Shown here: piece after piece, positions 1-6,125 of the stretch
How positions within the stretch are numbered: the first letter of the stretch is position 1
Layout: every line of letters starts with the position of its first letter
Virus record (IMG/VR): IMGVR_UViG_2541047896_000001
Coordinates: 1 to 8,206 of that record
DNA from: a virus
Lineage: Monodnaviria; Loebvirae; Hofneiviricota; Faserviricetes; Tubulavirales; Inoviridae
Length of the DNA: 8,206 bases
Reading direction: 5' to 3' (one strand)
The notes under the pieces: model-generated
What the model was told of the DNA's origin: nothing
The model's database searches: none
What the model saw: the letters and a program-made list of their open reading frames with translations, nothing else
Translations under genes and position numbers: made by a program

Positions 1-1035
1 TCATCGTATCGCCCCTGAATAAACCGTCACCGTTTCTCCGTCGATTTCACCCGTCATCATCATGCCGTCAAAGCTGAACTGAGAAGCCGGCTCTATACGC
101 AGCCTCCCGGACGTGTCAGCCACGACAACCCACGCCTGACCATCGCGTTTAAGCCGTCCGGCAAGCCGCCATTTGTCCGAGACAACGGGCTTAACTGGCG
201 CAGCAGGAACTGAAACCACAGTGTTATTTCCGGCGGGTAAAACTTTTGTCTGCTGTTCAGGCTCTGAACTACCGTTTGACGTGAAAAACCAGAACAGATA
301 AAAAATGGCAATTACCGCCAGAATCAGTAACCCGGCGGCTTTAAACCACAGCATTTTAGAACTGAAAATATTCTGGCGTTTATCAGTGACAAGCTCCCTT
401 CCCTGCCCGTTCTCATGGGATTTATATAAAGGAAATATCGCCTTGTCATATTTATTCTGATAACTGTTCGTCAGATTCGACTTAAACAGCTTGATGCCCG
501 TAAATACGTCAACCCGGTAACGGTTATGCAGCCCCAGCGCCACATGCTTACTCATGCGATACGTGGTTTCCACCCGGTCTTTGATGAATCGCGGAAGGTT
601 GGCAACAGACTGATTCATAACCACTAAATCGCAGGTCACGCCTGTCTTTTCATCAGCGAAATGACGATGTTCTGCAATGAAAGAGCGATGATTTGTGGGG
701 ATTCCTTTATCGCTCTCCCATATGCGCCATGCTTCATCAATACAGATTAAATCCCCCGGACGGCAGAACGTATCATCCGCAATGCCTGAATCCGTTTTGT
801 AGGGAAAGAAATTATCGTTCTGAACGTCTTCATTCTGAACAAGTAAAATTTCACCAAGTGATTCCCTGTCTGCCTTTTTAATATCAACGCAGTAATCATA
901 AATACTTTGCGTGGCAAGGCCGTAAATATTACTGACAATGCGACGCCCAGCGATACAGGCGGGAATAATGACGCTTGCCACCACTTCGTAAGATTTACCG
1001 CTTCCGGGAATGCCCACATACGCAGAAATAGCCAT
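1..1035 (-). CDS. Filamentous phage assembly protein pI / zonula occludens toxin (Zot) family ATPase
   Basis: ATG at 1035-1033, TAA at 3-1, 344 aa. N-terminal Walker A GIPGSGKS (aa 8-15) and Walker B-like LICIDEAW (aa 96-103); single hydrophobic segment LLILAVIAIFYLFWFF (about aa 236-251) followed by a C-terminal domain of about 90 aa. This domain layout and the last position in the morphogenesis block match pI/Zot. Confidence 0.85.
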   Translation of the reverse strand: MAISAYVGIPGSGKSYEVVASVIIPACIAGRRIVSNIYGLATQSIYDYCVDIKKADRESLGEILLVQNEDVQNDNFFPYKTDSGIADDTFCRPGDLICIDEAWRIWESDKGIPTNHRSFIAEHRHFADEKTGVTCDLVVMNQSVANLPRFIKDRVETTYRMSKHVALGLHNRYRVDVFTGIKLFKSNLTNSYQNKYDKAIFPLYKSHENGQGRELVTDKRQNIFSSKMLWFKAAGLLILAVIAIFYLFWFFTSNGSSEPEQQTKVLPAGNNTVVSVPAAPVKPVVSDKWRLAGRLKRDGQAWVVVADTSGRLRIEPASQFSFDGMMMTGEIDGETVTVYSGAIR

Positions 1036-1038
1036 AAA

Positions 1039-1326
1039 TTAACCAATCAAAGGAATGCGACGAATAATAAAGCGAGTTAACAATGCTGAAAACATCAGTT
1101 TAATCCCTTCCGTGACCATAAACAGATTCACGAAATACCATACGCTGTCCGGCAATGACGAAAATAACCCGGCAATATCAACAGACTTAGGCAGCAGTGA
1201 CGCCAGAACCGGAACAAACGCCTGTACGACAAAGTACAGGCCAAAAAACAGAATAAATTTGACAACCACCGTTCGCAGCACAAAACCCAGCGCCACGTTA
1301 AAGGCTGAAACCAGAATACCAAACAT
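1039..1326 (-). CDS. Minor coat protein pVI-like (Ace position in CTXphi), small hydrophobic protein
   Basis: 95-aa ORF, ATG at 1326-1324 preceded by GGAGG on the minus strand, TAA at 1041-1039 only 3 nt before the pI ATG. Strongly hydrophobic with multiple predicted membrane spans. Its position between pIII and pI is that of gene VI. Assignment is by position and composition, not demonstrated homology. Confidence 0.65.
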   Translation of the reverse strand: MFGILVSAFNVALGFVLRTVVVKFILFFGLYFVVQAFVPVLASLLPKSVDIAGLFSSLPDSVWYFVNLFMVTEGIKLMFSALLTRFIIRRIPLIG

Positions 1327-1336
1327 AACGCCTCCG

Positions 1337-3220
1337 TCACGCAGTCAGAATGATACGCAGCGAAATAATGCCCCAGATAAGCAGGAATACCGCTTTCAGA
1401 AGTGGCCTGATTTTTTCCAGAAGCTCGCAGTGAGAATCAATGGAATATTTATTGTCCCAGAGTTCGAACGACCATACCGGACACTGAACATCCTTCGATG
1501 AAATAATCAGATTTTTAATGTCCGGCATTAATTCCGTAATTGGCTTTAGAATTTCCTCACCTGTAGGCGGTTTTTCAAGTTCCGGCGCTTTAATGCCGGG
1601 GTCTTCGCCTAAATCAACAGAAGTATCGGTATCTGTGCCTGTACCAGGGTGTACACCTGTATCCGTTCCCGCACCGGGTCTGGCATTAACCCACGACTGA
1701 GGAACGACAACCGGACTATAAAGCAAGCCCTTATCAAGTTTTACGCCAACAGCATTAGCCGCAGCCGTCAGTTCAGCCGCCGTAAAAGGTTTATCAAGCG
1801 GTATCCCCTGATATCCTTCCTGAACAACAGTCTGACCTGCAAGGCCATTAATAAGATTAACCAGCGCAGCCGGGTTTAACTGTTCTTCCGGCTTGAAATC
1901 TATATTATCAATAACCTCGCCATTAATTACCTGAGGTAAAGTTGATGTATCAAATTCTGTATTAAAAAATATCTGGTCTTTAACATCCTGAACATCATTC
2001 GTCGTTTTATACACGGCCTTCTCAGGGTGGCAAATACTTTTCCACTGCGTTTTGGGATTATCAGCCGTACTGCCCGGCGCAGGTACTTTCTCGCTTTTAC
2101 ATAAATCCCATGAATTTTCAAGCGTAACCGTTGTTGTCGCAACAGATAAAACAACAGTTACAATCGATGAATATCCACCAAAATAAGGATTCGGCTTTTC
2201 ATACTGAAAGTCTTTAACGGAAACCGAATAAACCTTAAAATTTCTTGGCATCCTGATATGTAAGTTATTGTCGTCAGAAGCCTCATGATAAGTCACATTG
2301 GAATGAGAATAACCATTAATCGACTTATAAAGCGCAATCATTACCGGATTATCACTGACAAGTACAGCATCGCCCTTTGCATCCCTGATATCAGTCGAAT
2401 AAGGATATTTAGTACCCTTTACTGACACACGATATACATCATTCGGAAATGGCTGGCTTATCGGCGGTGGTGCATCAATATTGTAATAGGTTGGCGCAAT
2501 CTGAACAGGTTTAACCTGCTGATTATAAGGGTTTATCGAATCCTGAATATTCTTCGCAGAAAAGCCAGTAGCATCAGAGGGCAAATAAACAGCAACAGGG
2601 CTTTTAGGTGAAGGTGCAACAGAAGAAGTAACAGTAGCGCCATTGGACAAATTAAGTAAATAAGTTCCATCATCCTGTTTTATTCCACTTGTAATATATT
2701 CAACAGCTTTTGCGCCCTGCTTTAAAGCAAGGTCAGCAACGGAAATAACACCCGCAGCCTGCCCCAACAATCCCCATGTTGTCTGTCCGGCAGCCATCAT
2801 ATTACTGCCAAAACTTGAAATACCCGTAGATATCGAATCGTCAATTGTATGCTTCGCAAGGCCATAAGCAGCCGCGAAAACTGACGTTCCGGTGCAAAGC
2901 TGAGGGTTACCCACTTTCTCGCCACACATGCGGATTGAATCAAAAACGTCAGGACGTTCGCGTATAACCTCCGCAGCGACAGCGATACCCGCGCCCATAC
3001 CGAGAGAACTGGCACCCGTTGCGAACACACGCCCCGCAGATTGAGAAACAACCTGAGCTTCACGGGTTTCAACCATTTGCTGAATTACACGTCCAAATCC
3101 GTCTGCTGTTACTGCATCAGCATGTACACCGGATGAAACCAGTAAGGACAATATAGTAATACCTAACTTTCCAGACCCTGAATGACCGCCCAGGCGCATA
3201 AAAGCCCCCATAAAAAACAC
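1337..3220 (-). CDS. Adsorption / minor coat protein pIII-like (receptor-binding, virion-tip protein)
   Basis: Long ORF, 627 aa from GTG at 3220-3218. In-frame ATGs at 3211-3209 and 3199-3197, the latter preceded by a GGGGG run, are more likely starts. N-terminal signal-peptide-like stretch KLGITILSLLVSSGVHA then DAVTADG; Gly/Thr/Asp-rich linker GAGTDTGVHPGTGTDTDTSVDLGEDPG; C-terminal hydrophobic anchor LLKAVFLLIWGIISLRIILTA. Lies between pVIII and pVI as gene III does. Confidence 0.7.
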   Translation of the reverse strand: MFFMGAFMRLGGHSGSGKLGITILSLLVSSGVHADAVTADGFGRVIQQMVETREAQVVSQSAGRVFATGASSLGMGAGIAVAAEVIRERPDVFDSIRMCGEKVGNPQLCTGTSVFAAAYGLAKHTIDDSISTGISSFGSNMMAAGQTTWGLLGQAAGVISVADLALKQGAKAVEYITSGIKQDDGTYLLNLSNGATVTSSVAPSPKSPVAVYLPSDATGFSAKNIQDSINPYNQQVKPVQIAPTYYNIDAPPPISQPFPNDVYRVSVKGTKYPYSTDIRDAKGDAVLVSDNPVMIALYKSINGYSHSNVTYHEASDDNNLHIRMPRNFKVYSVSVKDFQYEKPNPYFGGYSSIVTVVLSVATTTVTLENSWDLCKSEKVPAPGSTADNPKTQWKSICHPEKAVYKTTNDVQDVKDQIFFNTEFDTSTLPQVINGEVIDNIDFKPEEQLNPAALVNLINGLAGQTVVQEGYQGIPLDKPFTAAELTAAANAVGVKLDKGLLYSPVVVPQSWVNARPGAGTDTGVHPGTGTDTDTSVDLGEDPGIKAPELEKPPTGEEILKPITELMPDIKNLIISSKDVQCPVWSFELWDNKYSIDSHCELLEKIRPLLKAVFLLIWGIISLRIILTA

Positions 3221-3243
3221 ATAAAATCAAAAAGATATTGAGC

Positions 3244-3273
3244 CATAAATATAAAGGGGCTGTTACGCCCCTT
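3244..3273 (-). terminator. Rho-independent terminator/attenuator downstream of the major coat gene
   Basis: On the minus strand directly after the pVIII stop: 7-bp stem AAGGGGC / GCCCCTT (3267-3273 pairing with 3254-3260), 6-nt loop, followed by TATATTTAT (3253-3244). Established knowledge: Ff phages carry a terminator after gene VIII that sets the pVIII:pIII ratio. Confidence 0.55.
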
Positions 3274-3284
3274 ACCTTTATGAA

Positions 3285-3533
3285 TTAAGCGCCACGAACC
3301 ATACGCAAAATCCAGCGGACACCCGCAGAACCTGCATACAGAACAATAAGAGAACCCGCTACCGCCATAATTCCGGTCAGGACGGAACCGAAATTAACGC
3401 TGTTAGTCAGCGGCGTAAGGTCAATACCTTTACCACCAACAACATCACCTTCAGCAGCAAATACAGCAGGTGCAGCAACAGCCAGAGTAAAAGCACCAAT
3501 ACGGGTTAAAACCTGTTTAGTCTTACCAAACAT
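3285..3533 (-). CDS. Major coat protein pVIII precursor
   Basis: 82-aa ORF, ATG at 3533-3531 preceded by AAGGAG on the minus strand. Signal peptide MFGKTKQVLTRIGAFTLAVAAPAVFA, then a mature peptide of about 56 aa with acidic N-terminus (AEGD), hydrophobic core (VLTGIMAVAGSLIVLYAG) and basic C-terminus (VRWILRMVRGA). This is the hallmark pVIII layout. Confidence 0.85.
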   Translation of the reverse strand: MFGKTKQVLTRIGAFTLAVAAPAVFAAEGDVVGGKGIDLTPLTNSVNFGSVLTGIMAVAGSLIVLYAGSAGVRWILRMVRGA

Positions 3534-3544
3534 AAAAACTCCTT

Positions 3545-3814
3545 TTATGCATTTCTTACGTGTTTAAGAATTTCACCTATTCCCTTTGCAAAGAGCCACA
3601 GGAAAAAGGTTGTCGTAAAAGCCAGCCCCCAGAATTGCGCCGCGACTGAATAATCAATATCGGGAACAGGCTTATCCTGAGAAACTACCGAAGACTGTAA
3701 TTTAACAACTTCTGACTTCGGTAATTTCAAAGTGACTTCATCGCATCCGTCAGGGCTGCCAAAGCTCATATTCGGATTGCAATATTTTGTCCTGATGATT
3801 ACCTCATCTGACAT
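3545..3814 (-). CDS. Small membrane-anchored protein of unknown function (gene VII/IX position)
   Basis: 89-aa ORF, ATG at 3814-3812 with AAGG-containing upstream sequence, TAA at 3547-3545. Soluble N-terminal part with two Cys (YCNPNMSFGSPDGCDE) and a C-terminal hydrophobic helix FWGLAFTTTFFLWLFAKGIG. Function inferred only from position. Confidence 0.5.
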   Translation of the reverse strand: MSDEVIIRTKYCNPNMSFGSPDGCDEVTLKLPKSEVVKLQSSVVSQDKPVPDIDYSVAAQFWGLAFTTTFFLWLFAKGIGEILKHVRNA

Positions 3815-3831
3815 AAAAGTATCGCCTTAAC

Positions 3832-4122
3832 TCATTCTAATAATTCAAGCAGCATATCAACGTTATACCCTTTAGACTGCTCACCTGTCTGCTTATCAGT
3901 GTATGGGAAACTCCGTTCATAACCAGTAATACGGCAATGTACGTCTGTAATTTCATCACCAATACGGCCTAATGGTTTCTTTGATTTAATACGAATGACA
4001 GGCGGAAAGCTATAAGCATCAGCCGCAGGAGAAACAATTGTTGTATAATAAAAACCGCCACTATTATTAAAGCGTTTAATCTTTCCGGTAACAGTAGTTT
4101 CTAAATTAAGTAAATTACTCAT
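3832..4122 (-). CDS. Candidate ssDNA-binding protein (pV / RstB position)
   Basis: 96-aa ORF, ATG at 4122-4120 preceded by AAGGTG on the minus strand, TGA at 3834-3832. Small, predicted beta-rich protein immediately downstream of rep, where inoviruses encode the ssDNA-binding protein. No motif-level proof of family. Confidence 0.45.
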   Translation of the reverse strand: MSNLLNLETTVTGKIKRFNNSGGFYYTTIVSPAADAYSFPPVIRIKSKKPLGRIGDEITDVHCRITGYERSFPYTDKQTGEQSKGYNVDMLLELLE

Positions 4123-4138
4123 AATAACACCTTATATT

Positions 4139-5254
4139 CTATGCAACTCGTAAATGAGACGGTTTTACATACCACGATGGAATAACACAATCAGAAACTT
4201 TAATCTCTCGCGTTTGCTTGACAACAACAGGAGAGAATTTCGAAACATTACATTTTTGCGCAATGTCAATACCAATCTTGCGGAGTCTTGCTCGATGAAT
4301 ACGCACTTGATTTTTACTTAAATCAAAAATATGACCATGAAACCATTGGATCGCATACATAGCTGTAGTATTAGCTGCCCGTGTAGTTTCAACTATTCCA
4401 CGGGTAATAAGATGTTCACTAATAGTTTCAAAATCCATAGCATTCACCGATAACTTTTCATCAAGAGCCAGAAAATCAGAATGTAACTTATTTAAGACAG
4501 AATAATCAGATAACCCCCAAAAACCTAGAGAGTGCTTTTGAATAAAACGAGACTTCAATTTTTGTTCAAATCTGACTATTCCATTTTCCTTACAATAATC
4601 AATCACACTAACAATATAATTAAACTCTTTTGACTGCTCAGAGAATTTATTTTTTATTTTTAATAAACTATGTAACTCAATCTCATGTGACTTATTATAT
4701 ACAGTCGGATAAATAAGATTAACATTCCCTTTTTTAGACAACCAGTCAACAGATTTACCGTTTGAATGCAACCGTGGGACACTATTCCTATAGGGTTGAG
4801 TCGAAAGCCCTGAAATATAATCATCCTCATTCCCTTTGCCAACAGATTTATTAGATGTTATATGAAGCTCTTTAATTAACGCCCCATCAGTTACCATATG
4901 GGCTTTTTCGGTTTCTTTAGACTGACCGGGCATTAATCGAGTGCATTTTGTGAAAACAGGCAATTTAAGATCAAGAAGGATCTTATTGAAAACCATAACG
5001 CAAGCATCAACAGTAGGTAAGCCAAATAAATTATCAAGCCGCCCCCACCGCGAGGGGTTGCCCGTCATTTTTAGAACAGATCCACGGATAGAGATAGAAA
5101 CGACATCACAGAAAGATCCCCGGTGCTGAAAAGTTGGCTGAGAAAGCGCACTAGCCTCACCACTTTCAAGATGAATACGCTGGTAAGCAACATCCGAGAG
5201 AATAGGAAGTTGAAAGCCGAAATCCTGTTCAATACTTAACCAGTCGAAGAACAT
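4139..5254 (-). CDS. Rolling-circle replication initiation protein (pII / RstA-like)
   Basis: 371-aa ORF, ATG at 5254-5252, TAG at 4141-4139. First gene of the minus-strand operon behind a near-consensus sigma70 promoter. The N-terminal region (VVSISIRGSVLKMTGNPSRWGRLDNLFG) resembles, from memory, the conserved N-terminal block of Ff pII (CVEIKASPAKVLQGHNVFG). Size and position fit RstA/pII. Confidence 0.75.
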   Translation of the reverse strand: MFFDWLSIEQDFGFQLPILSDVAYQRIHLESGEASALSQPTFQHRGSFCDVVSISIRGSVLKMTGNPSRWGRLDNLFGLPTVDACVMVFNKILLDLKLPVFTKCTRLMPGQSKETEKAHMVTDGALIKELHITSNKSVGKGNEDDYISGLSTQPYRNSVPRLHSNGKSVDWLSKKGNVNLIYPTVYNKSHEIELHSLLKIKNKFSEQSKEFNYIVSVIDYCKENGIVRFEQKLKSRFIQKHSLGFWGLSDYSVLNKLHSDFLALDEKLSVNAMDFETISEHLITRGIVETTRAANTTAMYAIQWFHGHIFDLSKNQVRIHRARLRKIGIDIAQKCNVSKFSPVVVKQTREIKVSDCVIPSWYVKPSHLRVA

Positions 5255-5377: not shown

Positions 5378-5566
5378 ATGCCTACAAAGCACATAAACGA
5401 TGTTCAATGGAGAAAAATAGAGAAAGAAACCGTTAGAGCGGTATCAACCCTAGCTGTTCCAGTTAAAGATACCAAAATGCTCGAATGGATAATCGCCAAA
5501 GGGTTAGAGACGATCACAGAAGACGACTACCGCAAGTTCCTGAAGACAGAAAGCAAAAAAAAATAA
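5378..5566 (+). CDS. Small hypothetical protein, candidate phage regulator (RstR-like position)
   Basis: 62-aa ORF, ATG at 5378 with GAGG 7 nt upstream, transcribed divergently from rep as rstR is in CTXphi. Lys-rich C-terminus. No recognisable helix-turn-helix, so the regulator call rests on position only. Confidence 0.5.
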   Translation: MPTKHINDVQWRKIEKETVRAVSTLAVPVKDTKMLEWIIAKGLETITEDDYRKFLKTESKKK

Positions 5567-5758
5567 GCGAGCAGGGAAAAAATACGGGAAACCGTACTAA
5601 AGTTCGGGTGTCACAGAACCCCGAACCGCTTCGCGGCGAAAAAACGAACAACAGCAGAGCTTGCGAAATCGGAATTAAGATAAGCTGGACGTCAAACGAT
5701 TAAACAAAAATACGCCATTATGCAAAGATCAAATGACACACTCTAAAAGGTATAGGTA

Positions 5759-6025
5759 ATGAACAAAGACCAGATAATACAAGTACTTAATGAAACAGAG
5801 AATGACAGCCCCGTAGCAAGAGCAGAATTAGCAAGATTCCTCGTAAAAACAATCTACAATTTTGTAAAAATGGAGAGGCCAGAAGGTGAAGGTCTGGACG
5901 GACGTGATGGCCCAGAAAGGCGCAGCATGGGAAAAATTGTAGATGCGGCAGAAAACCACTACTTTAACATGATAAAAGAAAGCCATGAAAAACAGGGAAT
6001 TGGAAGAAAAAACCCTGAGGAATGA
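5759..6025 (+). CDS. Hypothetical protein, unknown function
   Basis: 88-aa ORF, ATG at 5759 with AAAGG 8 nt upstream, TGA at 6023-6025, immediately followed by the dif-like site and a hairpin with T-run. Charged, Glu/Lys/Arg-rich; no motif recognised. Confidence 0.45.
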   Translation: MNKDQIIQVLNETENDSPVARAELARFLVKTIYNFVKMERPEGEGLDGRDGPERRSMGKIVDAAENHYFNMIKESHEKQGIGRKNPEE

Positions 6026-6031
6026 CGCCCT

Positions 6032-6125
6032 AATGCGCATAATGACGTTATGCTAAAGAGGCCGCTGCGGGATTCTATTTTCGCAGCGGCCTTTTCAACA
6101 TAACGAGTCAAACATTATGCGCACC
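6032..6125. other. Xer-type attachment structure: two inverted dif-like sites separated by a GC-rich hairpin (attP-like / prophage-host junction)
   Basis: Site A, plus strand: 6032-6042 aatgcgcataa (9/11 to the dif XerC arm GGTGCGCATAA), 5-nt spacer, 6048-6058 ttatgctaaag (9/11 to the XerD arm TTATGTTAAAT). Site B, minus strand: complement of 6115-6125 = ggtgcgcataa (11/11), 11-nt spacer, complement of 6093-6103 = ttatgttgaaa (9/11). Perfect 11-bp inverted repeat 6034-6044 / 6113-6123 and 7-bp inverted repeat 6046-6052 / 6099-6105. The dif consensus is recalled from memory. Confidence 0.65.
6060..6095 (+). terminator. Rho-independent terminator-like hairpin at the apex of the attachment structure
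   Basis: 10-bp GC-rich stem GGCCGCTGCG (6060-6069) / CGCAGCGGCC (6082-6091), 12-nt loop, then TTTT (6092-6095), 35 nt downstream of the 88-aa ORF stop. It may serve both as a terminator and as the tip of the folded attP hairpin. Confidence 0.6.

Follow-up and report, generated by a model that had tools for sequence, protein, structure and literature searches.

The DNA analysed here, a stretch of 8,206 nt that we call the window, holds a filamentous prophage and, to its right, chromosomal DNA of the Escherichia coli host. The locus raises the question of how a phage without a recombinase gene came to end exactly at the chromosomal dif site, and whether the 94 nt at positions 6032-6125, two inverted dif-like sites around a GC-rich hairpin, are its means of doing so. 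A preliminary description had taken these positions for a folded attachment site of the CTXphi kind. We conclude that they are very probably the CTXphi-type attP of a temperate inovirus of about 7.7 kb, lying at the right prophage junction in the E. coli dif locus. For CTXphi of Vibrio cholerae, attP(+) is described as a forked hairpin of attP1 and attP2 (Val et al., 2005, as summarised in PMC3089051 and PMC5357621). According to these reviews the attachment site proper arises when the two sites pair in the (+) strand. A single pair of strands is then exchanged, by XerC alone, and replication completes the integration; the product is one functional dif and two non-functional sites, and the prophage cannot be excised (PMC3089051; PMC5357621).

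The genes and flanks of the window are as follows.

1-1035, minus strand: pI/Zot (Pfam Zot).
1039-1326, minus strand: pVI-like DUF2523 protein (Pfam DUF2523).
1337-3220, minus strand: pIII-like protein of 627 aa (Pfam/PHROG).
3285-3533, minus strand: major coat protein (PHROG coat).
3545-3814, minus strand: open reading frame among the core genes of positions 1-5254.
3832-4122, minus strand: ssDNA-binding protein (PHROG ssDNA-binding).
4139-5254, minus strand: Rep/G2P, rolling-circle (Pfam G2P_X_C and Phage_CRI; PHROG replication).
5378-5566, plus strand: small open reading frame of 62 aa.
5578-5641, minus strand: If1-like intergenic/origin segment, 86.8% identical to the If1 major intergenic region.
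5759-6025, plus strand: small open reading frame of 88 aa.
6126-8206, no strand assigned: host chromosome with the dif flank, two hipA fragments and the interior of an autotransporter gene.
6207-6259 and 6260-6345: the two hipA fragments of the host flank.
6311-8206, minus strand: open reading frame, interior of an ECSE_1600-family autotransporter gene.

Since the core genes and the match to the If1 origin all lie on the minus strand, the viral (+) strand is the minus strand of the window. Rep shares 82% identity with the Rep of phage If1, and both it and the ssDNA-binding protein belong to the If1 type. The two small open reading frames on the plus strand (PHROGs phrog_5219 and phrog_37184, function unknown) flank the If1-like segment and are accessory or regulatory genes upstream of attP. 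The unit length of the phage, taken from relatives and an IMG/VR contig, is 7,669-7,705 bp, and a secretin is seen in the relatives. With this secretin the inovirus gene set is complete (Rep, ssDNA-binding protein, coat, pIII-like protein, pVI-like protein and Zot/pI), and the genome falls within 5-10 kb. No recombinase gene was found in the 7,669-bp phage unit, where the small open reading frames match no recombinase family. When the window and attP were compared with the deposited phage genomes by megablast and blastn, a 64-nt match to the If1 intergenic region was the only one returned, with none for attP; the phage of the window is absent from that collection. As to the host side, the dif locus accumulates insertion sequences as well as elements that exploit Xer, and the targeting of dif by an ISKpn21-family element has already been published.

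The 94 nt of the attachment site are made up of seven parts.

6032-6042, plus strand: XerC-like arm of the short-spacer site (the attP2 equivalent), AATGCGCATAA, matching the dif XerC arm at 9 of 11 positions.
6043-6047, plus strand: 5-nt centre of the short-spacer site, TGACG, the same in nearly all enterobacterial variants.
6048-6058, plus strand: XerD-like arm of the short-spacer site, TTATGCTAAAG, matching the dif XerD arm at 9 of 11 positions and pairing with 6093-6103 in both predicted folds.
6059-6092, no strand assigned: terminal stem-loop with a GC-rich stem of 10-11 bp (6060-6069/6082-6091) and a loop of 12 nt.
6093-6103, minus strand: XerD arm of the long-spacer site (the attP1 equivalent), TTATGTTGAAA on the minus, that is the viral (+), strand, matching dif at 9 of 11 positions.
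6104-6114, minus strand: 11-nt centre of the long-spacer site, TGTTTGACTCG, whose first 3 nt, TGT, are the start of the dif centre TGTATA.
6115-6125, minus strand: XerC arm at the prophage-host junction, GGTGCGCATAA, matching the E. coli dif XerC arm at 11 of 11 positions.

On the plus strand the short-spacer site (6032-6058) reads AATGCGCATAA-TGACG-TTATGCTAAAG, and the reverse complement of 6093-6125 gives the long-spacer site as GGTGCGCATAA-TGTTTGACTCG-TTATGTTGAAA. Coordinates and letters of the forward site with its 5-nt spacer agree with the earlier reading, as do the 11-nt spacer of the inverted site and its arms (XerC 11/11, XerD 9/11). Our reference is the E. coli dif, the 28-mer GGTGCGCATAA-TGTATA-TTATGTTAAAT, which could be read directly at the left ends of the prophage arrays of E. 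coli NCTC9040 and PEC148. The XerD arm TTATGTTGAAA also shares 9 of 11 positions with the XerD arm of CTXphi attP1, TTATGTTGAGG. The inverted repeats and the central GC hairpin, likewise noticed before, were returned by a repeat finder as two pairs. One consists of the 11-nt stretches 6034-6044 and 6113-6123, complementary at 100%, which provide the XerC-like arm at 6032-6042 with its partner; the other is a 24-nt pair at 88% (6046-6069/6082-6105) that contains both the 7-bp pairing of the XerD arms and the 10-bp GC stem.

The half-sites by themselves are not significant. With up to two mismatches allowed, the XerC arm alone has 2 matches in the window against 2.4 expected, and the XerD arm alone 9 against 4.9, which we also judge to be at the level of chance. 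It is the composite arrangement alone that is significant: if a composite site is defined as XerC arm, 4-13 nt and XerD arm, with at most two mismatches in each arm, the window contains two, against 0.008 expected per dinucleotide-preserving shuffle, and an inverted pair of such sites within 150 nt arose in none of 2000 shuffles.

At the right prophage end, host DNA starts at 6126, directly after the perfect XerC arm. The preliminary description had looked to the dif of a prophage-free relative for this border, and E. coli BL21 supplies it, with an empty site that is a plain dif (...ATTTAACATAATATACATTATGCGCACT) followed by the identical flank. In the alignment, identity starts at 6112 with the shared TGT, runs through the XerC arm and continues into the flank from 6126. 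For the other end we turned to relatives, the left end of the window's own prophage lying outside the window. E. coli NCTC9040 has two and PEC148 three tandem copies of the window's phage (96-100% protein identity), with right ends built like that of the window. At the left ends of both arrays a canonical dif, ATTTAACATAATATACATTATGCGCACC, is fused directly to the phage sequence AGTGCGCAG, and the dif-like site predicted for the other prophage end is thus present in these relatives. The prophage is bounded by an intact dif on one side and by the paired sites on the other, the right end being read from the window and the left end from relatives only.

The tandem arrays also reveal the site as it is in the phage itself. 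Their phage-phage junctions show the native site, ...ACATTATGCGCACC followed directly by AGTGCGCAG, and because GGTGCGCATAA is found there, the phage's own XerC arm is GGTGCGCATAA as well. Further tandem copies occur in NC101 (at least two) and on the plasmid p98219 (at least two), and all the prophages of this family that we examined are arranged in tandem. The window's phage is also found, at 99.96% identity, in an IMG/VR contig that has a phage-phage junction and a period of 7,705 nt, so the prophage of the window is probably part of an array too. In E. coli A37, a circular 'plasmid' of 7,439 bp is the replicative form of a related inovirus and has both sites and the hairpin. Paired sites in a circular replicative form and at tandem junctions mean that the pair is native to the phage before integration. 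The same observations bear on another origin for the arrangement, namely a scar of two successive, oppositely oriented Xer insertions with the forward site as a leftover hybrid dif. A locus that gathers Xer-exploiting elements and insertion sequences lends itself to such scars, but the paired arrangement recurs in the circular extrachromosomal genome and at every tandem phage-phage junction, and we consider this origin extremely improbable. The identical 94 nt at an empty site would have told against an attachment site of the phage. Among 5426 E. coli genomes we found no prophage-free one with 6032-6125 at an empty site, and the carriers that were inspected all adjoin a filamentous prophage or a remnant of one. 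Gene set and junctions also agree with the earlier proposal of an integrative element that would exploit Xer at the dif of an enterobacterial host.

As single-stranded DNA, either strand of 6032-6125 is predicted to fold into a single long hairpin in which the XerC arms are paired, the centre is bulged, the XerD arms are paired and the stem-loop forms the tip. The predicted energies are -30.7 kcal/mol (z -7.6) for the plus strand and -31.0 kcal/mol (z -7.15) for the minus strand, which reads 5'-GGTGCGCATAA-TGT...; the long hairpin with a bulged centre that had been drawn from the repeats is therefore what the folding program returns for both, with z about -7. In the folded (+) strand the arm at 6032-6042 pairs with the XerC arm of the long-spacer, or top, site. 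Among relatives this arm varies (GGTTCGCACAA, AGTGCGCACAA and others) and a core of 9 bp of the pairing is kept. The CG of the TGACG centre that adjoins the XerD arm pairs with a CG of the long centre, and the first four nt of TGTTTGACTCG (TGTT) are unpaired. In this computed structure the (+) strand would pair the two sites into a XerC arm and a XerD arm, with the polarity that XerC could cleave lying on the (+) strand.

For 33 enterobacterial variants, the proposed structure is paired in 90.4% of its cells, as opposed to 28-53% when the partners are slid, and the GC stem is invariant. Covariation is slight: only three pairs change on both sides, a number reached in 12 of 500 shuffles, and one of the three includes a base that is possibly host-derived. 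In the covariation table, three central pairs are set one column off and are to be disregarded. Because the module is highly conserved and the arms of the top site are fixed by the search pattern, covariation lends the structure weak support. A compensatory change is seen next to the XerD arms in one variant (L101), where CG/CG has become CA/TG, a change of one G-C to A-T.

The (+) strand of CTXphi reads AGTGCGTATTA-TGTGGCGCGGCA-TTATGTTGAGG, then about 90 nt, then CCGTAACATAA-TGGCGAG-TAATACGCATT, and its predicted fold (-38 kcal/mol, z -5.5) leaves an unpaired stretch right after the XerC arm. When the fold of the window's minus strand is set against it, as the preliminary description had suggested, the topology is alike. 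The parts also follow each other on the CTXphi (+) strand as they do on the window's minus strand: XerC arm, long centre starting with TGT, XerD arm, hairpin, inverted XerD arm, short centre and inverted XerC arm. The two phages further share the products at the junctions, tandem prophages and the lack of a phage recombinase. They differ in that the window's site is shorter (94 nt, compared with about 150 nt) and its two dif-like sites are closer together (34 nt apart instead of about 90 nt), that its tip hairpin is simple and not forked, that its centres are 11 and 5 nt long instead of 12 and 7, and that its XerC arm is adapted to the enterobacterial dif. The backbone of the window's phage is unrelated to that of CTXphi (Zot-family pI, If1-like Rep, own secretin). 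As far as sequence goes, the window matches every element of the reviews' description of CTXphi. By analogy, the site would be expected to fold in vivo and to bind XerC and XerD, with catalysis by XerC only, and integration from the single strand by XerC would depend on XerCD. Both sites would probably be inactive as duplexes and integration would be irreversible.

The hairpin invites a different explanation, in which it is mainly another single-strand signal (for packaging, as a minus-strand origin or as a bidirectional terminator) and the dif-like arms are incidental. It is non-coding and lies downstream of gene IV on the (+) strand, roughly the place of the packaging hairpin in Ff, and its GC stem is bordered by runs of A and T. 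Yet incidental arms fit poorly with an inverted composite pair that no shuffle reproduced, with an 11/11 XerC arm exactly at the phage-host boundary, and with junctions in relatives that show recombination within the site. A terminator scan with a loop limit of 8 did not call the hairpin at 6059-6092, its 12-nt loop exceeding that limit, and an Rfam scan at the curated gathering thresholds gave no match for it. We regard this explanation as very improbable. The hairpin may still have a second role beside attachment, and the GC stem-loop may act, additionally or instead, as a terminator between the convergent transcription units.

To see how far the arrangement is conserved, we surveyed public collections with a pattern for the long-spacer site only (TCAACATAA, 8-13 nt, TTATGCGCA). 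In IMG/VR, 66 matches had upstream sequence of sufficient length, and 59 of them had an inverted XerC/XerD-like partner within 130 nt; among 218 control windows there was none. The long centre begins with TGT in 56 of these 59 partnered sites and is variable thereafter. A scan of bacterial genomes (596 Gb) gave a partner in 13 of 116 matches; with about 100 matches expected for 18 specified bases in 596 Gb, most of the others are chance matches, and the scan recovered Yersinia pestis, Lelliottia, Phytobacter, Enterobacter and Aeromonas. All of the 54 unique partnered variants fold as a single long hairpin, with spacers of 8-13 nt in the long site and 5-7 nt in the short site. Two main classes can be told apart. 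One, enterobacterial, is 92-95 nt long, with 5 nt in the short centre and a GC stem-loop that is simple; the second, with Aeromonas genomes among its sources, is about 106-157 nt long and has the arms TTATGTTGAGG and TTATGTTACGG and the long centre TGTGGCCGCGGTA. To judge by their letters, the arms and centre of this second class are plainly homologous to CTXphi attP1/attP2. Where the enterobacterial sites have the GC stem, the Aeromonas/CTXphi class has a forked hairpin of about 90 nt that is not homologous to it.

These numbers weigh on the main rival, duplex integration of the VGJphi type, in which the long-spacer site (6093-6125) would be the sole attP and exchange strands with dif on its XerC side as double-stranded DNA. 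The short-spacer site and hairpin would then have no part in integration and could be, for example, a degenerate relic and a terminator. The junctions would look the same by the duplex and the single-strand route, and both arms of the long-spacer site, XerC and XerD, are good in their own right. Its spacer, however, is 11 bp (8-13 bp in the 54 variants) and never the 6-7 bp of dif and the 29-bp VGJphi site. The near-universal inverted partner in viral contigs, absent from the control windows, speaks against the rival too, and this partner persists in classes whose intervening hairpin is non-homologous. The prophages of the family that were examined are all tandem, as expected for a non-excisable phage of the CTX type. 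Duplex recombination at the long-spacer site is therefore unlikely in our view, and the folded, CTXphi-type attP remains the preferred reading. VGJphi and TLCphi resemble the window's phage in using host XerCD at dif with no recombinase of their own. VGJphi differs by its single duplex site of 29 bp and its excisability; where a single duplex attP of about 29 bp was looked for, the window has two inverted sites, their spacers 11 and 5 nt long, and the VGJphi type was rejected. In TLCphi it is XerD that starts the catalysis and a proper XerD arm is missing, whereas the XerD arms of the window are good.

Among enterobacterial phages the closest counterpart of the attachment site is that of YpfPhi in Y. 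pestis, whose copy of the 94-nt module is 92.6% identical (87 of 94 positions, 7 differences). YpfPhi and CUS-1Phi are filed as CTXphi-type in the literature, with assignments based on sequence, and a review of YpfPhi describes a potential pair of sites for XerC/XerD binding that face in opposite directions, with an intact dif re-formed at one of the ends. Given these 7 differences and the CTX-type assignment in the literature, the attachment site as such is not new. YpfPhi and CUS-1 (E. coli O18:K1:H7) share with the window's phage the module, the dif target, the intact dif at one end and the tandem repeats. They are 99% identical to each other over a core of about 7 kb, and the pI of the window is only 46-48% identical to theirs; neither YpfPhi nor the CUS-1-like prophage of NC101 has any detectable similarity to the window's Rep and ssDNA-binding protein. 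They also have an HTH gene and an STM4504-family gene by attP where the window has the 62-aa and 88-aa open reading frames. An identification with CUS-1/YpfPhi was rejected, the attP module being all that is common.

From the dif integration, the tandem arrays and the E. coli host we had first assumed the phage to be a UPPhi, one of the Lineavirus-like dif-integrated prophages of Enterobacterales, whose core genes have about 70% amino-acid identity to IKe and I2-2 (PMC7307601). Host range, dif integration and tandem arrays are indeed alike, and contigs that fit UPPhi carry the attP module of the window. The assumption was abandoned, as the proteins have no similarity to IKe: queries with the window's pI and Rep against the phage collection returned no IKe or I2-2 record, and pI, pIII and Rep of IKe detected nothing in near-identical copies of the window's phage (L001, L174, L183). 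According to the UPPhi paper, the phage repeats agree with dif over its first fifteen or so bases only, and an attP or a hairpin is nowhere mentioned there (PMC7307601). The XerC arm plus TGTA is exactly fifteen bases, which accounts for that match. The window's phage is a new lineage with a known kind of attachment site, its putative mechanism having been described already for close enterobacterial relatives.

The module is not confined to one kind of phage. We found it on at least five inovirus backbones: the window type, CUS-1/YpfPhi, UPPhi/Lineavirus-like, If1-like and others. The UPPhi-like contigs with the module have a pI 63-70% identical to that of IKe and a Rep of the CUS-1 type, and the pI of the If1-like contigs is 78-91% identical to that of If1. 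Of 5426 complete E. coli genomes, 763 have a match to positions 6026-6114, and in 148 (about 3%) the match covers at least 80% of the module. On plasmids lie 402 of the 956 matching places for 6026-6114 in these genomes; in the one plasmid that was inspected the match is a truncated remnant adjoining an STM4504-family gene, and a gene of this family precedes attP in the CUS-1-like prophage of NC101. The window-type phage itself is rarer, with only six records in which it spans roughly half of the window or more.

The perfect XerC arm had also been said to mark the crossover between phage and host. It does bracket the crossover, and under the crossover model the arm at 6115-6125 is host-derived. 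It cannot pinpoint the exchange: the phage arm and the host arm are both GGTGCGCATAA, so the exchange point in the chromosome is not resolvable. The 272-kb plasmid p98219-contig_3 resolves it, with tandem copies of the window-type phage in a dif-like site of the plasmid, a target of the module beyond the chromosome. At the right junction the target arm AGTACGCATAA, which has two differences from the phage arm, is followed by the phage centre TGTCAACGCG and the phage XerD arm; at the left junction the phage arm GGTGCGCATAA is followed by the target centre TGTACG and the XerD arm TTATGTTAAAT. The XerC arms are thus swapped between the junctions, which bounds the exchange by position 4 of the XerC arm on one side and by the fourth base of the centre on the other. 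The crossover is on the XerC side, and this interval agrees with the known position of XerC cleavage in dif. The homology between the long centre and dif is confined to the XerC side as well, with TGT shared with the dif TGTATA and divergence from there on, a pattern that by analogy with CTXphi suggests strand exchange by XerC only.

We propose that integration would run as follows. In the packaged (+) strand, the minus strand of the window, the long-spacer site would pair with the reverse complement of the short-spacer site around the GC stem-loop, giving duplex XerC and XerD arms with a bulged centre between them. XerC and XerD of the host would bind the folded site and bring it into synapsis with dif, and XerC would cut after ...CATAA in the phage strand and in the top strand of dif. 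The TGT after the cut, common to phage and dif, would stabilise the exchange of one pair of strands, and replication would turn the resulting pseudo-Holliday junction into a prophage. One end of the product, that seen in the window, would have the host XerC arm followed by the phage centre, XerD arm, hairpin and inverted site; the other would have the phage XerC arm with the centre and XerD arm of dif, an intact dif. With duplex spacers of 11 and 5 bp the two sites are presumably no Xer substrates, so integration would be irreversible and progeny would arise by rolling circle over the tandem copies.

The finding opens no new mechanism. Its value lies in the annotation of borders, for which it gives a precise rule in dif prophages where the UPPhi description gave only the first fifteen bases of dif, and in an E. 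coli-native substrate for studies of CTX-type integration. The natural insertion in p98219 reveals, with no experiment needed, that the crossover is on the XerC side. We tentatively suggest, with slightly more doubt than confidence, that the folded attP of 94 nt is a portable integration cassette and not the trait of a single lineage, that it can target any replicon that has a dif-like site, a 272-kb plasmid among them, and that classical non-integrating phages, If1 and IKe for example, are derivatives that lost it. Were this so, filamentous phages could gain lysogeny by exchange of the module and travel on large plasmids. Single-strand Xer integration of the type known from the cholera phage is probably widespread among the filamentous prophages of E. 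coli and related Enterobacterales.

The genome of the window phage shares part of its replication region with the non-integrating filamentous phage If1. A stretch of 64 nt (window 5578–5641) matches the If1 major intergenic (origin) region with 86.8% identity, and the Rep and ssDNA-binding proteins of If1 are 80–88% identical to those of the window phage, but the morphogenesis genes of the two phages are unrelated. The window phage genome is therefore a mosaic. Its attP module, the inverted pair of dif-like sites around a GC hairpin, is carried by at least five inovirus backbones (IMG/VR contigs L130–L193). These include some contigs with a pI 78–91% identical to that of If1 and some with a pI 63–70% identical to that of IKe, which look like integrating relatives of these classical non-integrating phages. 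An intact folded attP is also found in an E. coli A37 record of 7,439 bp that bears the name "plasmid unnamed4" (NZ_CP195780.1). This molecule is a circular inovirus replicative form with genes for Rep, G5P, coat, pIII-like, pVI-like, Zot and secretin proteins.

In the native phage an inverted copy of part of the XerC arm lies directly outside that arm, as seen in a near-identical phage copy (L183 6833–6858) and in the tandem array of E. coli NCTC9040 (L001 7448–7465). The sequence is TGCGCACC|GGTGCGCA in the window phage and TGCGCAC-CA-GTGCGCA in its relatives, while the CUS-1-like phage is without an inverted copy at this position. The copy could fold into a small hairpin that acts as a competitor, or it could be a second half-site for XerC.

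Truncated attP remnants may be common on plasmids, since plasmids account for 402 of the 956 places matching window 6026–6114, and the same 66-nt attP match, at 92.5% identity, recurs in many large plasmids. On plasmid NZ_CP126603.1 (L006 5054–6066) the match is a truncated remnant that keeps the short-spacer site and the hairpin but only the first part of the long-spacer site, beside a gene of the STM4504/CBY_0614 family. This remnant resembles the right-hand end of a CUS-1-like prophage; IS fragments and an efflux operon of the MacAB-TolC type are found nearby.

The host flank of dif in the window is rearranged compared with other E. coli, both in 6207–6345 and in 6345–8206. This flank lacks hipB, and its ECSE_1600 autotransporter gene is missing about 1.9 kb at the 3′ end. 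As hipB is missing and hipA persists only as two short fragments, the hipBA toxin-antitoxin locus has been deleted in this genome.

Features in the flanks of dif and of a plasmid dif-like site
Window 6207–6259 and 6260–6345: short hipA fragments
L001 (NCTC9040) 16909–17709: defence-type genes
L003 12179–13579 and L004 13772–15001 (NCTC9040 and PEC148): integrase gene beyond the left-end dif
L001 15125–15140 and L197 (plasmid p98219) about 12680–12690, minus strand: start of ISKpn21-family element

Several E. coli strains have defence-type genes (a Shedu nuclease, a SIR2-family protein, an STM4504-family protein) between dif and hipA, a pattern suggestive of a hotspot for accessory cargo in the dif flank. 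Some 150 bp past the intact dif that borders the NCTC9040 and PEC148 phage arrays on the left is a gene for a site-specific integrase, in a place occupied by fimbrial genes in BL21; it may mark another island adjoining dif. The dif XerC arm of BL21(DE3) is AGTGCGCATAA, with A instead of G as its outermost base (L008 1487–1514). In the NCTC9040 chromosome and in plasmid p98219 an ISKpn21-family (ISNCY/IS1202) element starts 5 nt away from the XerC arm, on its outer side. That such elements target dif and pdif sites at a distance of 5 bp from the XerC arm has already been published (PMC10132070; bioRxiv 10.1101/2022.12.17.520857).

Plasmid p98219 (NZ_CP173491.1), a 272-kb E. coli plasmid, itself has a filamentous phage of the window type inserted in a dif-like site, in at least two copies arranged in tandem.

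Junctions of the phage array in NZ_CP173491.1
L009 2330–2365: phage junction
L197 12690–12760: phage junction

The XerC arms are exchanged between the two junctions, and the reconstructed target site reads AGTACGCATAA-TGTACG-TTATGTTAAAT. A large plasmid hosting a CTX-type phage may merit interest on its own account.
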